DNA of 64,000 bases from Negativicutes bacterium (GTDB lineage Bacteria; Bacillota; Negativicutes; JAAYSF01), in the NCBI GenBank assembly GCA_028707635.1, contig JAQWAQ010000002.1, positions 11,802 to 75,801 on the forward strand, read 5' to 3'. The position numbers and the translations under genes were made by a program. Shown piece by piece: positions 1,358-49,560 of the stretch. Under the pieces are notes generated by a model. That model worked only from the letters and a program-made list of their open reading frames with translations. It made no database searches and had not been told where the DNA came from. The stretch's first letter is position 1. The number at the start of each line of letters is the position of its first letter.

Positions 1358-1572
1358 ACCCTAAAAACAAAAACATAAGGCCTCGGAAAACCGAAGGCCT
1401 TACTATAAGCACGTTTGACCTTCCCTCCTCGTTGAGCTTTAGCACTATATGACGTAGAGAATTCTCAGCCACATTAAGTAAAACCTTAATCCGATAATAC
1501 CTGTTCAACCCATTGGCGTCTTTCGACGTTTCCGGGCAGTGGCCTATATTCATACAGGAGCCTCACCTAACA
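1358..1572 (-). promoter_or_regulatory. M-box (ykoK-type) Mg2+ riboswitch with intrinsic terminator expression platform, leader of mgtE
   Basis: Minus strand reads GTTAGGTGAGGCTCCTGTATGAATATAGGCCACTGCCCGGAAACGTCGAAAGACGCCAATGGGTTGAACAGG...GGTTTTACTTAATGTGGCTGAGAATTCTCTACGTCATATAGTGCTAAAGCTCAACGAGGAGGGAAGG, which closely tracks the B. subtilis mgtE M-box as I remember it. It is followed by the hairpin TAAGGCCTTCGGTTTTCCGAGGCCTTA and a T-run (1358-1401). Confidence 0.8.
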
Positions 1573-1603
1573 GAGAAACTTTTAAATTATACAAGTCATT
1601 ATT

Positions 1604-10594: not shown

Positions 10595-10758
10595 ACCATC
10601 CCTCCTCCATATTTGACAAGCGAAAAAATGAGACTTGTATCAAACTATATCTATATATATTCGGAAAGATAAAGCATCATTCGACACATCAGGCAATATA
10701 AATTTACTAATTGCTTACTTCTGCCCTTAGCGTTGCTTATCAGAGGAGGATAGTTGGA

Positions 10759-16957: not shown

Positions 16958-18934
16958 CTAGCGAGCCTGAAAATATACCCGAACTTCGCTCGCTACATCC
17001 ACAACGGTATTCGGTTGAATACTTTGACTGGCTGCTATCCCCGATCCTTCGGGAATCATCCCCAGACCGGCCTTGGAAAGAAGCTCTCCGGCCTGGCGCA
17101 AGGTTTTACCGCGCAAGTCAGGTACAATGACCTTACCGGCCGGGACAGGTTTCGTCGGCGGCGCAACAACTGGTGCTGCCGTTTTATAAGTGGGCTTAGG
17201 AAGAATTGGCTGCGCTTCTAGGGGATGAACATTAAGATAGCGTAATACCTTGGCAAAAATTTCACCAGCTACCGGAGCCGCAATTTCCCCCCCATAATAG
17301 GCACCGTTGGGGTCATCGAGAACGACCAGCACCACAATTTGTGGGTTTTCAACAGGCGCGAAACCAACGAACGAGGCAATATAGCGACCGGCATAATAGC
17401 CTCTGCCATCTTCACGTGGTTTTTCAGCAGTTCCCGTCTTACCAGCAATCCGGTAGCCTTTAACTGCTGCCCGCTTGGCGCCTCCCTCACTGACTACCTT
17501 TTCTAGCATTTCAGTCAGGGTTCTAGAGGTATCAAGACTAATTACTTGTCGTACAACCTGGGTTGAAGACGCGCTATAAATTGAACCGTCTTCGTTCTGG
17601 ATTTCCTTAATAATGTGCGGCCTAAGCAATACGCCGTCATTGGCAATCGCGGCCATGGCCGTTGCCAGTTGCAGCGGGGTCACGGCAATACTTTGCCCGA
17701 TTGACATTGTCGCCAAGTCAGATTCACGCATATTTTCGGGCTTAAACAAAATCCCTAACCCCTCGCCCGGTAATTCAATATTAGTTGCCTCCCCAAAGCC
17801 AAAGGCCCGGGTATAATTGGTCAGGCGAGTCGCACCTAAGCGCATGCTTAAGTGGACAAAGCCGGTATTAATTGAATTCTTCATAACATCAATAAAAGTA
17901 ACACTGCCGTAACTATCCCCGCTCCAGTTCTTTATTCGGCGGCCTGATACCTCAACATAACCGGTGTCCACAAATCTATCATTAGGCTGAACAAGCCCTT
18001 CCTGCAAAGCCGCAGCCGCAACAATACTTTTGAAGGTTGAACCAGGTTCATATAGACTGGCTACAGCACGATTTCTCCAGTTATCTGAACTGTATTTATA
18101 AAAACTATTAGGATTAAAGGTCGGCCTATTGGCCATCGCCAGAACATCCCCTGTACGAGGATTCATGACAATAACGGTTGCCCCTGCAGACCGGGTACTG
18201 GTCATAGCCTTGTCCAAACAGTCCTCAACAATAAACTGAATGGTGGCATCTAAGGTTAAATAGACATTTTTCCCTTGTTTCGGCGGAGCAAAAGTAAAAA
18301 CAGACTGAAATATGGGAATGCCCCGACTGTCAGTATCAACAACATGCTTAGCTAAACTCCCCTTGATCGTTCCGTCCAGGGCCATCTCAAGACCATCTAG
18401 CCCGACATCGTCTGTCCCGACAAAACCCAATACCTGAGCTGCTAATGTTTCATTCGGATAATAACGCTTGCTTTCCTCAATAAAAGCAAACCCTTTTAGG
18501 CTGTGATCCTTAATAATCGCGGCAATTTTATCTGAAACGTCTGGGTCAAGCGTTCGTTTAATCCAAACAAACCGGCCGTCTTCAACAAGCTTTTTTTGTA
18601 TCTCACTTGCCTCCATAGTAAGAACAGGAGCCAAGAGATTAGCAATTTCACTAGAATCCCGTTGGTTCGTTTTCGCCTCTTCCGGATCCACGTACAAAGA
18701 CTTTGCCAGAAAGCTTACGGCCATTTCCCGGCCATTACGGTCGAAAATTGTTCCACGCGGCGACAAAAGCCCCCGTTGGTCCTGGACCTGTCCCCGGGCC
18801 TTTTCCGATAACTGCTCCCCCTGTACAAATTGAATCCAGGCTAAGCGTCCCGCCAGCATAAATACTGCCACGATAACGATTGTAATAAATATGGCAATTC
18901 GTTTGCGCAAACCTTTGCCTGTTGCTCCCGTCAT
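16958..18934 (-). CDS. spoVD: Class B penicillin-binding protein with C-terminal PASTA domain (SpoVD / PBP2B-like)
   Basis: 658 aa with N-terminal TM, transpeptidase SxxK/SxN/KTG motifs and a single PASTA (...VPDLRGKTLRQAGELLSKAGL...). Confidence 0.75.
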   Translation of the reverse strand: MTGATGKGLRKRIAIFITIVIVAVFMLAGRLAWIQFVQGEQLSEKARGQVQDQRGLLSPRGTIFDRNGREMAVSFLAKSLYVDPEEAKTNQRDSSEIANLLAPVLTMEASEIQKKLVEDGRFVWIKRTLDPDVSDKIAAIIKDHSLKGFAFIEESKRYYPNETLAAQVLGFVGTDDVGLDGLEMALDGTIKGSLAKHVVDTDSRGIPIFQSVFTFAPPKQGKNVYLTLDATIQFIVEDCLDKAMTSTRSAGATVIVMNPRTGDVLAMANRPTFNPNSFYKYSSDNWRNRAVASLYEPGSTFKSIVAAAALQEGLVQPNDRFVDTGYVEVSGRRIKNWSGDSYGSVTFIDVMKNSINTGFVHLSMRLGATRLTNYTRAFGFGEATNIELPGEGLGILFKPENMRESDLATMSIGQSIAVTPLQLATAMAAIANDGVLLRPHIIKEIQNEDGSIYSASSTQVVRQVISLDTSRTLTEMLEKVVSEGGAKRAAVKGYRIAGKTGTAEKPREDGRGYYAGRYIASFVGFAPVENPQIVVLVVLDDPNGAYYGGEIAAPVAGEIFAKVLRYLNVHPLEAQPILPKPTYKTAAPVVAPPTKPVPAGKVIVPDLRGKTLRQAGELLSKAGLGMIPEGSGIAASQSIQPNTVVDVASEVRVYFQAR

Positions 18935-19028
18935 ATAATACGCAACCTTTCACTCTGAACTGTTTCTGTAACTATAATTCGCGCCAATAGAGTGTATCCC
19001 TGCTTTCACATAGTCCACAACGACTCGA

Positions 19029-19067
19029 TAAAGTGAGACTTGATTCAGATGGAGTTTTAACTCCACC
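19029..19067 (+). repeat. Copy A of a conserved intergenic 21-nt motif AAAGTGAGACTTGATTCAGAT (+ AACTCCAC)
   Basis: Near-identical to copies at 23027-23047 (reverse orientation) and 44511-44538. Confidence 0.6.
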
Positions 19068-19096
19068 TGGATCCTAGTCGAACCGTATCCAGGGAC

Positions 19097-20266
19097 TTAG
19101 CTGCCCTGGTCAGGGCTCGGCCCAAGAAAGACGGCAAACGCAATCAAGCCGCTCAAAGCAATAGCACTCCCCAGATAAAACATCATCTCAAAGCCAAATC
19201 GCTCACCCAGCGCCCCTAAAAGAACAGCACCGGCCGTAATCCCTAGATCCATAAATGAGGTAAAGAAACCTAAGGCGCTGCCCCGATCCCGCGGAGGCGT
19301 ATAATCAACAACCAACGCATTCAGGGTTGGCATAAAGGCACCAAAGCCAAGACCAAACAGCCCGCCGATCAGAGCCAACTTAAACAGGCTGTCAATACCA
19401 GGCAATAAAAAAGTTGCAATGACCACGAGCGCGATAAACGGCATAACGAGCTTCCGGCGGCCGATACGATCTGACAACTTACCGACCAATACCCGGCTCA
19501 TAATCGTGCTAATCGCATAAACCGTAAAGAAGATGCCGAAATCCTTAATTCCGCGCTGGGGCACAAATAACGGCAGAAACGTAAAAACAGCGCCGTACGC
19601 CGTTGCCCCACCAAGCAAAGCTAGCGACGGTACGATAACACCCCGTCGCCTGACAAGTTCAAACGTAGTGGCCGGTCTAAAGCTCTTTCCGGACCCATGA
19701 TTAATTTCTTTAAGAAAAACGACTGCGACCAAAGCAATTCCCGCTGCCAATGCAGCAAGACTAAAAAGATAATTAAAATTCCCAGTGGCGCTAATCAAGG
19801 TAGTTCCCCAGGCTGGAAACAACGCCATGGCCACAATATTTGAAGTTCCATAAATCCCGATTACTTCACCCCGACGCTGCGGCGGGGCAATATCAGCAAT
19901 ATAGGCAGCCGATGCCGCCATAAAGCAGGCATGAGCAAAGCCGTGCGCCGCTCGGGCTGCATAAAGAAAAGGCAGTGTCTCAATATAATTATAAAGAATA
20001 AAAAACACAACAAAAAAAGCACTGCCCAACAACATAAACCGTTTATGACCATACCTATCGACCATCTTACCGAAGTAGGGCCGAGCGGCCACCGCCGCAA
20101 GGGTAAACCACCCCATCACCATACCAACCTGGCTTGGTGAACCACCTAAAACACCAACATATTGCGGTAAGGTCGGCAACAAGAAATAAAAACTGCCGAA
20201 ATAAAAGAAGTTGGCAAGACAAAGCAAAACAAAATCCCGTGACCACAGTCTAAACTCACCACCCAT
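19097..20266 (-). CDS. MFS transporter
   Basis: 389 aa with 12 predicted TM helices and an MFS signature ...GKMVDRYGHKRFML... Confidence 0.75.
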   Translation of the reverse strand: MGGEFRLWSRDFVLLCLANFFYFGSFYFLLPTLPQYVGVLGGSPSQVGMVMGWFTLAAVAARPYFGKMVDRYGHKRFMLLGSAFFVVFFILYNYIETLPFLYAARAAHGFAHACFMAASAAYIADIAPPQRRGEVIGIYGTSNIVAMALFPAWGTTLISATGNFNYLFSLAALAAGIALVAVVFLKEINHGSGKSFRPATTFELVRRRGVIVPSLALLGGATAYGAVFTFLPLFVPQRGIKDFGIFFTVYAISTIMSRVLVGKLSDRIGRRKLVMPFIALVVIATFLLPGIDSLFKLALIGGLFGLGFGAFMPTLNALVVDYTPPRDRGSALGFFTSFMDLGITAGAVLLGALGERFGFEMMFYLGSAIALSGLIAFAVFLGPSPDQGS

Positions 20267-22992: not shown

Positions 22993-23026
22993 CATAAGCA
23001 GCGGCTACCAAGATTCAGATGAATTT

Positions 23027-23047
23027 ATCTGAATCAAGTCTCACTTT
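23027..23047 (-). repeat. Copy B of the conserved 21-nt motif (reads AAAGTGAGACTTGATTCAGAT on the minus strand)
   Basis: Followed by the perfect 9-bp inverted repeat GATTCAGAT-AAATTC-ATCTGAATC. Confidence 0.6.
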
Positions 23048-23105
23048 ATTTCCGGCTTCGTAGTAATATAGAGATATTTGCAAATTATTTTAAAGGGGGA
23101 TTATT

Positions 23106-23435
23106 ATGGCTGCCAAATATCATGATATAAAAATTACCGTATTAAAAAAACTCGAAGTCCCTGATATTCACAAAGAATATGCTGCTGACGGTGTTCACAC
23201 CCAATGTGCCAAATATAAGGAAGGCCACGAATATATTTGTAAGAATGTTGTAAAGCCCGATGGATTCTGTTCATGGGCTTGGGTGGCTGTTCAGGATAAA
23301 GTTGTTTTTCTATCCCTTGGTCATGATTATCCTTGGATTAAACAAAAAGGGTTCGAAATCGTATGCTGTGCGGACGGGCTTCATCCTGTACTTTACAAGC
23401 TAGAGCGACTCCCCTTCGACTCGAAAGAACTATAG
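23106..23435 (+). CDS. Hypothetical Cys/His-rich 109-aa protein (possibly TIGR04076-like)
   Basis: ATG after AAAGGGGGA. No clear domain from sequence alone. Confidence 0.45.
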   Translation: MAAKYHDIKITVLKKLEVPDIHKEYAADGVHTQCAKYKEGHEYICKNVVKPDGFCSWAWVAVQDKVVFLSLGHDYPWIKQKGFEIVCCADGLHPVLYKLERLPFDSKEL

Positions 23436-44269: not shown

Positions 44270-44461
44270 TTACTTACTCCTTAGCCACTTATCCGTCATA
44301 TCCTTTATGACTTGCCGCATCATTCCCGCCCGACATTCCGGACAATGTACACTCCAATCCGCTTCACTGTCTTTTCGATCGACGGTGAGAAACTTGCGGC
44401 CGCATGTCTTGCAAATTTGCCATCTCGTCATTCCGCCTACGGACACAATCTCACCTCGCAA
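44270..44461 (-). CDS. Small zinc-ribbon protein (CxxC...CxxC), hypothetical
   Basis: ...WQICKTCGRKF...VHCPECRAG... Start uncertain (TTG 44461, GTG 44446 or ATG 44431); no strong RBS. Confidence 0.35.
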   Translation of the reverse strand: MRGEIVSVGGMTRWQICKTCGRKFLTVDRKDSEADWSVHCPECRAGMMRQVIKDMTDKWLRSK

Positions 44462-44510
44462 TTTGTATTGATTGGTAAATTATATGCACAAGCTTGATGC
44501 TTTATGATAC

Positions 44511-44538
44511 GAGTGAGACTTAATTCAGATAACTCCAC
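44511..44538 (+). repeat. Copy C of the conserved motif (GAGTGAGACTTAATTCAGATAACTCCAC)
   Basis: Shares GTGAGACTTRATTCAGAT plus AACTCCAC with copy A. Confidence 0.6.
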
Positions 44539-49130: not shown

Positions 49131-49298
49131 ATGACATTTAAAGAATTTAAAGAACAGCACCCCGGCGGCTACTATTTAAGAGCCGCTGAAGACAAAAGAA
49201 GTTTGTATGGAGATTGCGATAATTTGATTGTTGATAATTATCTTTATCAGCCGTTAAATGGAATCTACACAGTTTACTTGATTGGGAGCATTTGACAA
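49131..49298 (+). CDS. Small hypothetical phage protein (55 aa)
   Basis: ATG after GGAGGCGG, downstream of the strong promoter. Below the ORF-track length cutoff. Confidence 0.4.
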
Positions 49299-49377
49299 AA
49301 ATAGCAGAGTGACGGCCCACCCGGGCCGGTAATGCGGCAAGCGGGGTCACAAGCCCACCGCGAAAGGAGCGAACACA

Positions 49378-49560
49378 ATGAAACTAGAAGGTTACGCCGG
49401 TATATGTACCCACTGCTTCGAGCCGGTCAAGAATGGCGAGGAATACCGATTTCCCGGCAGCACGACGACATTCCACGCTCGCTGTGTAGAGTCGAACCCA
49501 AACAGCTATTATATCCGCAGAGAGCGCCGCCGATCAGCGAAACGTATCGCCAGTAAATAG
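49378..49560 (+). CDS. Small Cys/His zinc-finger-like phage protein with basic tail (60 aa)
   Basis: GAAAGGAG RBS. ...CTHCFEP...FHARC... then RRERRRSAKR. Confidence 0.45.
   Translation: MKLEGYAGICTHCFEPVKNGEEYRFPGSTTTFHARCVESNPNSYYIRRERRRSAKRIASK

Follow-up and report, generated by a model that had tools for sequence, protein, structure and literature searches.

A short motif recurring in intergenic regions of a Negativicutes genome as the probable 3' arm of a bcr1-like mobile repeat

Recurrence of the motif ahead of three genes

Three intergenic regions within a 64-kb stretch of Negativicutes DNA, which we call the window, carry nearly the same short sequence. Each copy lies 50-100 nt 5' of a start codon and reads toward the gene, as the initial annotation had observed, which raises the question of whether the sequence is a control site common to these genes or a part of something larger. 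The 18-mer GTGAGACTTGATTCAGAT occupies 19033-19050 (+) and 23027-23044 (-), and its one-base variant GTGAGACTTAATTCAGAT lies at 44513-44530 (+); we refer to these copies as A, B and C, respectively. All three are located where they had been reported, apart from the trivial shift that the 21-mer of copy A starts at 19030 and not at 19029. The recurrence exceeds chance, as had been claimed: ATCTGAATYAAGTCTCAC(T) occurs three times in the window, a count reached in none of 100 dinucleotide-preserving shuffles, and only 0.06 matches are expected per window when up to three mismatches are allowed. Copies A and C also share a downstream AACTCCAC, which is present at 19058-19065 in copy A, 7 nt after the motif, and at 44531-44538 in copy C, directly after it. 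The spacing differs because the repeats described below fall into two subfamilies that differ by an 8-nt indel, AAAACTCC. A weak fourth site had been proposed at 10629-10644 (-). This site is a 14-mer with two mismatches, for which 0.8 occurrences are expected, and it is absent from the matches of both the profile HMM and the covariance model; we therefore reject it as a copy and place it outside the repeat family.

One explanation offered for the motif was a transcription-factor site, or a UAS that replaces a -35 element, through which the genes for a spoVD-like PBP, a 109-aa protein and a zinc-ribbon protein would be co-regulated. The placement of the three window copies, all directed toward a nearby start codon, is in line with such a site, as is the lack of a convincing predicted sigma-70-type promoter in the interval from the motif to each of the three genes. 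The motif itself had been judged to fit neither sigma-A nor the sporulation sigma factors, and we reached the same result: no sigma-70-type hexamer pair lies within or beside it, and ECF, sigma-54 and sporulation-sigma patterns, inspected by eye, revealed no fixed spacing to any downstream conserved box. However, the conserved unit is approximately 130 nt rather than 21 nt in length, and what had been taken for a self-standing unit of 21-28 nt is really the last 21 nt of that longer repeat. The arm GTGGAGTT and a subfamily indel are both common to copies A and C, an indication that these arose by copying and did not converge on a binding site. Of the 55 copies that could be scored, 32 direct the motif end at the start of a gene and 23 at the end of one, and the Dendrosporobacter motif is antisense to its two neighbours, which share one strand, so that neither position nor orientation is consistent with a regulatory site. 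Furthermore, the copies belong to a known repeat family, the bcr1-like elements, which speaks against a regulatory site. The regulatory-site reading is not supported by these results, and we consider it extremely unlikely. Of the options put forward initially, a small repeated element was the closest, whereas the transcription-factor site and the UAS lack support.

The full-length repeat and its fold

A metagenome scan with the query AYCTGAAYYAAGTCTCACT returned 71 loci, approximately 50 of which lie on 11 contigs (1.95 Mb) of assembly VSSQ01, and approximately 110 nt 5' of the motif are also conserved across these loci. The motif is the 3' end of a non-coding, dispersed, intergenic element of approximately 130 nt, with full copies ranging from 108 to 164 nt. 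A profile search of the fetched loci identified 80 distinct copies, including 69 in the VSSQ01 contigs, and none of the 80 lies within an ORF of at least 90 aa. Fifty-three are full-length, 21 consist of the 3' end only, three of the 5' end only and three are of other kinds; the excess of 3' over 5' fragments is biased, since the loci were collected with the 3' motif. The VSSQ01 contigs may derive from the same population as the window organism, because NCBI records the MFS protein encoded in the window on a 451-kb contig of a 'bioreactor metagenome' and the window contig is absent from the scan results.

The consensus of the element is TTTAT-CCGATGAC(C/T)AA(G/C)CCGCTCT - variable hairpin module(s) - AGAGCGGCTAAGTCCCTGGATACGGTTCGACTAGGATTCAGGTGGAGTT[AAAACTCC]ATCTGAATCAAGTCTCACTTTAT, and the presence or absence of the 8-nt AAAACTCC in stem-loop 2 defines the two subfamilies. 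At its 5' edge, a TTTAT-like pentamer precedes TATCCGATGAC; the linker ACGGTTCGACTAG connects domains 1 and 2; and the hairpin of domain 2, GGATTCAGGTGGAGTT-AAAA-CTCCATCTGAATC, is followed by the tail AAGTCTCACTTTAT, such that the 3' edge reads ...TCACTTTAT. The 5' pentamer is TTTAT in 34 of the 53 full copies and a one-base variant in the others, and the 3' pentamer is TTTAT in 47 of 53. In none of the 19 copies with a deviant 5' pentamer does the 3' pentamer show the corresponding change. Four of the 53 full copies run straight into another left end, forming head-to-tail pairs that share one TTTAT, and copies decay through internal and 5' deletions. By eye, TATCCGATGACTAAG at the left end and ATAAAGTGAGACTTGA, the right end in reverse complement, have only GA(T)GACT in common, and the element ends do not form terminal inverted repeats of the type found in classical, DDE transposase-dependent MITEs. 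Short palindromes made of two facing right ends (ATAAAGTGAGACTT...AAGTCTCACTTTAT, approximately 56-60 nt) were observed at loci L011 (2897-2956), L047 (734-793) and L081 (1319-1378), and these may represent a minimal derivative of the family.

Minimum-energy folding gave a single two-domain shape for members from VSSQ01, other metagenomes, a C. tetani plasmid and Dendrosporobacter, and the shape is retained in the last three despite a completely different hairpin-1 sequence. Domain 1 consists of an outer helix (ATCCG..GAC / GTC..CTGGAT) around the helix CCGCTCT/AGAGCGG, with one or two variable hairpins, and domain 2 is a long hairpin that ends in a short single-stranded ...TTAT tail and contains the motif as its 3' strand. 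In a 55-sequence alignment, standard pairs fill 93.5% of the cells, compared to at most 47% with slid partners, and 18 of the 47 pairs feature changes on both sides; none of 500 shuffles reached the observed values. The T/C variation within the motif (CTGAAT/CTGAAC) co-varies with GGATTCAG/GGGTTCAG. The fold of the element is supported by these compensatory changes. With fixed G.T pairs set aside, G.T mismatches (91) and A.C mismatches (72) are similar in number, and therefore the data do not indicate which strand folds. Similarity between hairpin 1 (ACTCCCGCTT...AAGCGGGAGT, inside CCGCTCT/AGAGCGG) and hairpin 2 (GGATTCAGGTGGAGTT...) is limited to a 5-mer. A search of Rfam with a full copy at E<=10 returned only chance matches to microRNA-like hairpins. 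The 3' end of a group II intron (domain V/VI), which had been suggested by ...ACGGTTC..., was considered as an identity and discarded, as the domain V pairing does not form.

The arrangement of the neighbouring genes relative to the element was evaluated for the same 55 scorable copies. Both flanking genes are co-directional with the element in 24, both are opposite in 12, and the genes are convergent in 11 and divergent in 8. Compared with the local gene-strand majority, the orientations divide 33:34. Read in the orientation of the element, 38 copies have a positive GC skew and 29 a negative one, in contigs with strong local skew (|skew| of 0.1-0.2). The orientation of the element is random with respect to both gene strand and GC skew.

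The window copies and the site of copy A in relatives

A profile HMM built from 35 full copies matches the window at only three places, which are copies A, B and C, all 5'-truncated. Copy A (19028..19108, (-)) spans profile positions 52-132 of 132 (nhmmer E=5e-27, 89.5 bits) and holds the linker GCTAAGTCCCTGGATACGGTTCGACTAGG, a complete stem-loop 2 and the ...GTCTCACTTTAT end. Over approximately 80 nt it is 90-97% identical to approximately 40 copies at other loci. The motif within it (19030..19050, (-)) runs from the 3' strand of stem-loop 2 (ATCTGAATC-A-AGTC-TC-ACT) into the TTTAT terminus. Copy A is located between an MFS transporter gene (19097-20266, -) and the 658-aa spoVD-like PBP gene (16958-18934, -). 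Copy B (23007..23049, (+)) is a relic that covers profile positions 82-132 and retains only a shortened stem-loop 2 (GATTCAGAT-GAATTT-ATCTGAATC) and the AAGTCTCACTTTAT end (nhmmer E=7e-7; covariance model 32.6 bits, E=8e-6). It follows a dehydratase gene and its terminator and precedes the 109-aa ORF (23106-23435, +) by 57 nt. Copy C (44508..44538, (-); nhmmer E=7e-4, profile positions 94-128) reads GTGGAGTT|ATCTGAATTAAGTCTCACTCGTAT and is a relic from the subfamily without AAAACTCC; of stem-loop 2 it retains no more than the 3' arm and the tip of the 5' arm. Its junction GGAGTT|ATCTGAAT also occurs in at least 12 full-length copies, and it is positioned upstream of the 63-aa zinc-ribbon ORF (44270-44461, -). 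Copies A and B end in TTTAT, whereas the terminus of copy C is mutated, with CTCGTAT in place of CTTTAT.

Domain 1 is absent from all three window copies, and most of domain 2 is likewise missing from copies B and C, which shows that the window contains decayed, 5'-truncated 3' fragments of the element. These fragments would have no dedicated regulatory role. They are most readily viewed as inert relics whose remaining hairpins may influence transcript read-through or stability at most. Short-read contigs of the strain from which the window derives break inside copies A and B, with L014 starting at 19072, L015 at 19083 and L016 exactly at 23027, within copy B. Such breaks are expected of a multi-copy repeat, and the repeats explain why short-read assemblies of the window organism are interrupted here. 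Copies A and B were also considered as the inverted ends of a transposon enclosing 4 kb with the MFS, dapB and dehydratase genes. This candidate was rejected, as copies A and B each represent a truncated remnant of a 130-nt element, and the different gene order in relatives also opposes it.

The history of copy A was traced through relatives whose MFS homologues are 79-81% identical to that of the window and whose gene order, MFS-PBP-PHP-SASP, is the same. At four such loci the MFS-PBP spacer is without the element, meaning that site A is empty, and the spacer of one relative contains an ordinary terminator. The MFS proteins of the relatives end in ...GPSPSLENVK* or ...GPHPSHTAK*, whereas that of the window ends in ...GPSPDQGS*. 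The last codons and stop of the window gene (CAG GGC AGC TAA, 19097-19108, (-)) come from copy A, whose GCTAAG is the source of the stop codon; the sequence upstream of 19108, judged by its translation, encodes a transmembrane helix and not the element. These comparisons show that copy A arose by an insertion together with a deletion, which replaced the last MFS codons and the terminator. One of the same-order relatives carries a partial copy elsewhere, which places the family in that genome at different sites.

The same loci bear on the regulation of the PBP gene. Upstream of their orthologous PBP genes, the relatives have no copy of the motif and instead conserve another block, GCAGGGA(A/T)AC...GCGCGAAT(A/T)ATA. 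In the window this block occupies about 18957-19000 (-), between the relic and the start of the PBP gene. It is kept in all four relative loci that have no repeat, and its conservation suggests that it is probably the real promoter/operator region of the spoVD-like PBP gene. Absence of the motif from these upstream regions is further evidence against a transcription-factor site. For the window, a false lead is removed, in that the three genes are not joined by a common control site.

Several other features of the window were observed in passing. The GC skew is uniformly and strongly negative (-0.07 to -0.19), the G+C content is 42-47% and most genes lie on the (-) strand; the uniform skew and the strand preference indicate that the window falls wholly within one replication arm. 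An M-box (magnesium) riboswitch is located at 1417-1581 (-) with 163.8 bits. A type-P5 twister ribozyme (RF02684) is located at 49303-49358 (+), with 50.3 bits against a gathering score of 37.6, and is flanked by small ORFs at 49131-49295 and 49378-49560, both (+). At the gathering score, Rfam matched nothing in the window besides these two, both of which lie away from the motif, and the window contains no tRNA or tmRNA genes.

Relation to bcr1 and other mobile elements

The closest counterpart of the element is bcr1, a group A bcr repeat whose original description confined it to the Bacillus cereus group (Okstad 2004; Klevan 2007; Kristoffersen 2011). According to the summaries of that work in PMC3184786, PMC6542083 and PMC6199540, bcr1 is approximately 155 bp long with TTTAT at both ends, forms two independent stem-loops with compensatory changes and is transcribed, often within UTRs, while the related bcr3 correlates with mRNA decay rate. 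The same summaries describe features of a mobile element and a mechanism that is possibly site-specific, and bcr1 is proposed to be moved in trans at TTTAT sites. The B. anthracis Bcr1 sequences (PMC2267715 supplement) begin ATAAAGTGAAACTTTAATCAG, and the reverse complement of our element begins ATAAAGTGAGACTTGATTCAG. Full bcr1 copies were also read on plasmids of B. cereus (FM1) and B. mycoides. At the terminus, ...CTGAATCAAGTCTCACTTTAT in our element and ...CTGATTAAAGTTTCACTTTAT in bcr1 are alike at 17 of 21 bases, and both elements start with TTTATCC...; the linkers are GGTTCGACTA and GGTTCAACTA, respectively. Local alignment of the element to bcr1 scored 37, compared to 15.1 +/- 2.2 (maximum 29) for 2000 shuffles, which places the true score approximately 10 standard deviations above the shuffled ones. 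A covariance model, R1, built without any Bacillus sequence, matched bcr1 on the B. cereus FM1 and B. mycoides plasmids with 57.9 and 57.4 bits (E ~1e-11) over positions 1-131. A narrow, sequence-only profile HMM of the present copies gave bcr1 only 7.9 bits, which is not significant. Homology is called on the basis of the structure-aware model, the shuffle test and the Clostridium copies that bridge the two groups.

Members of the family were found across several classes of Bacillota. A C. tetani plasmid carries one full copy, and a C. beijerinckii plasmid is matched at different places by our element and by the right end of bcr1. Outside the B. cereus group, a Pseudalkalibacillus hwajinpoensis plasmid (locus L091) contains two full bcr1-type copies, at 403-556 and 749-905; with R1, the Pseudalkalibacillus copies reach 68-69 bits, again across model positions 1-131. 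When one genome per species was scanned, 13 matches were obtained, mostly chance matches in unrelated taxa, and the only real ones are in Dendrosporobacter sp. and 'Firmicutes bacterium UBA5324', where the motif adjoins a hairpin or makes half of a 56-nt palindrome. In a viral scan, all matches were bcr1 copies within prophage regions of the B. cereus group. Taken together, the family spans Bacilli, Clostridia and a Negativicute genus, which contradicts a restriction to the B. cereus group. We found nothing in the literature on such repeats in Negativicutes or Clostridium.

Two side observations were made in the fetched loci. In B. cereus-group prophages, two partly deleted bcr1 copies surround a small ORF for a Cys/Gly-rich peptide (...CGGCGRCGGFRCGGFRCIGCFGCFGCGGCGGCGGC...), as in L095 at 530-1235, and this bcr1-flanked ORF is also present in L097, L104, L108, L110, L118, L119 and L124. 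Separately, the 18-mer of the motif also lies, without any relation to the repeat, within a near-identical stretch, ...CCCGAGAAAAAAT-ATCTGAATCAAGTCTCAC-TCGGGCTTAGTGCAGGACAAAGG..., at L002 (6564), L010 (3847) and L013 (6220), and the stretch also occurs at L033, L051, L065, L075 and L083. Its occurrence in MAGs labelled Aminicenantes and Eubacteriales and in several metagenomes suggests that a gene or element has been widely transferred.

Based on these findings, we conclude that the motif is very probably the 3' arm of a structured, intergenic mobile repeat of approximately 130 nt that is homologous to bcr1, with the window copies being decayed fragments that have no dedicated control role. 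Mobility is inferred from the distribution of the element and from the empty site A. The element would spread as a non-autonomous mobile element, which may insert at TTTAT sites and would be moved in trans by a separate enzyme. The fetched loci, approximately 600 kb in total, revealed neither a transposase or recombinase adjoining a copy nor a longer element that has these ends. The ORFs beside twelve right-end-only and two left-end-only copies appear, from reading their translations, to be ordinary cellular genes.

A more specific account of this mobility is that the element is a PATE-type derivative of the IS200/IS605 group, for which a Y1 (HUH) TnpA would move single-stranded DNA and insert it 3' of TTTAT, perhaps with a guide-RNA-like transcript that serves TnpB in trans. 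The element resembles PATEs in having subterminal hairpins without clear terminal inverted repeats. The deviant 5' pentamers that are not mirrored at the 3' end depart from the pattern that a target-site duplication would give, and the single TTTAT shared at head-to-tail junctions also agrees with this account. ISGst2 has TTTAT as its documented target-adjacent motif, and so do some IStrons, with group A IStrons inserting after TTTAT, ATTAT or TTGAT. In Geobacillus, the right end of ISGst2 stops at TTCAC, and gene-less PATEs exist (bioRxiv 10.1101/2023.03.14.532601); for comparison with that right end, bcr1 ends ...GTTTCACTTTAT. However, a single TnpA normally acts on a pair of similar hairpins, one at each end, and the left and right hairpins of our element are unalike. 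A strong bias toward the lagging-strand template is usual among IS200/IS605 insertions, and the orientation of our element shows no bias relative to GC skew. Also against a PATE are the lack of tnpA or tnpB near any copy, the lack of an Rfam match even at E<=10 and the G.T mismatches, which are not clearly commoner than A.C once fixed G.T pairs are excluded. We therefore regard a PATE-type origin as unlikely. A broader form of the idea, to which we assign only an outside chance, is that bcr1-type elements constitute one ancient superfamily in Bacilli, Clostridia and Negativicutes-like Bacillota that is moved by a TTTAT-specific Y1/HUH transposase resembling those of IS200/IS605, with the right-end domain as the recognition hairpin and perhaps as a guide-RNA-like scaffold. 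If true, this would answer how bcr1 moves, a question that is approximately 20 years old.

The conserved fold could alternatively mean that the element is primarily a functional structured RNA, such as a stabiliser or terminator module in UTRs or a small RNA family, which acts on neighbouring transcripts. The two-domain fold with compensatory changes across classes of Bacillota favors this possibility, as do the reported transcription of bcr1, the correlation of bcr3 with mRNA decay and the sense orientation of all three window copies relative to the downstream gene. Nevertheless, orientation relative to neighbouring genes is random over the whole set, locations are not conserved between relatives, many copies are truncated, and the window copies have lost domain 1 and, in two cases, most of domain 2. 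The hairpin is also not an intrinsic terminator, because no U-run follows it. Weighing these points, we find a primarily RNA-level function very unlikely and retain the mobile bcr1-like repeat as the best explanation. The present evidence indicates recognisable relatives of bcr1 in distant Bacillota that keep the TTTAT edges, the two-domain fold and the right-end sequence, and a comparative set of such relatives could help to find the mobilising enzyme.

Compared with other known systems, the element shares with Correia/NEMIS, ERIC, RUP, BOX and REP/BIME sequences a dispersed, intergenic and hairpin-forming character, and, as with classical MITEs and REPs, copies are often co-transcribed with their neighbours and break short-read assemblies. 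In contrast to Correia and ERIC sequences, it lacks long terminal inverted repeats; in contrast to REPs, it lacks a GTAG or CGTC tag; and it differs from classical MITEs and REPs in its fixed TTTAT edges and in showing no detectable sequence similarity to them. The PATEs of the ISGst family in Geobacillus stearothermophilus, compared by description only, are likewise small and non-coding, have subterminal hairpins and no obvious terminal inverted repeats, abut TTTAT at the left end and occur in many copies presumed to be moved in trans. Our element departs from them in its differing left and right hairpins, the absence of a replication-strand bias, a right end that stops at TTTAT rather than TTCAC, and the absence of linked tnpA or tnpB. 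Relative to bcr1, the host is not a Bacillus; the G+C content of the window is 45%, a nuo operon is present and the nearest named protein relatives belong to Desulfocucumis and Sporomusaceae. Hairpin 1 is unrelated in sequence to that of bcr1 and is modular, with one or two interchangeable small hairpins, and our element has two subfamilies that differ by the 8-nt indel in stem-loop 2. Both elements are nonetheless of one size class (108-164 nt here and approximately 155 nt for bcr1), carry TTTAT at both edges, adopt a two-stem-loop fold with compensatory changes, are strictly intergenic with many partial copies at locations that vary between relatives, and share a homologous linker, stem-loop 2 and terminus.
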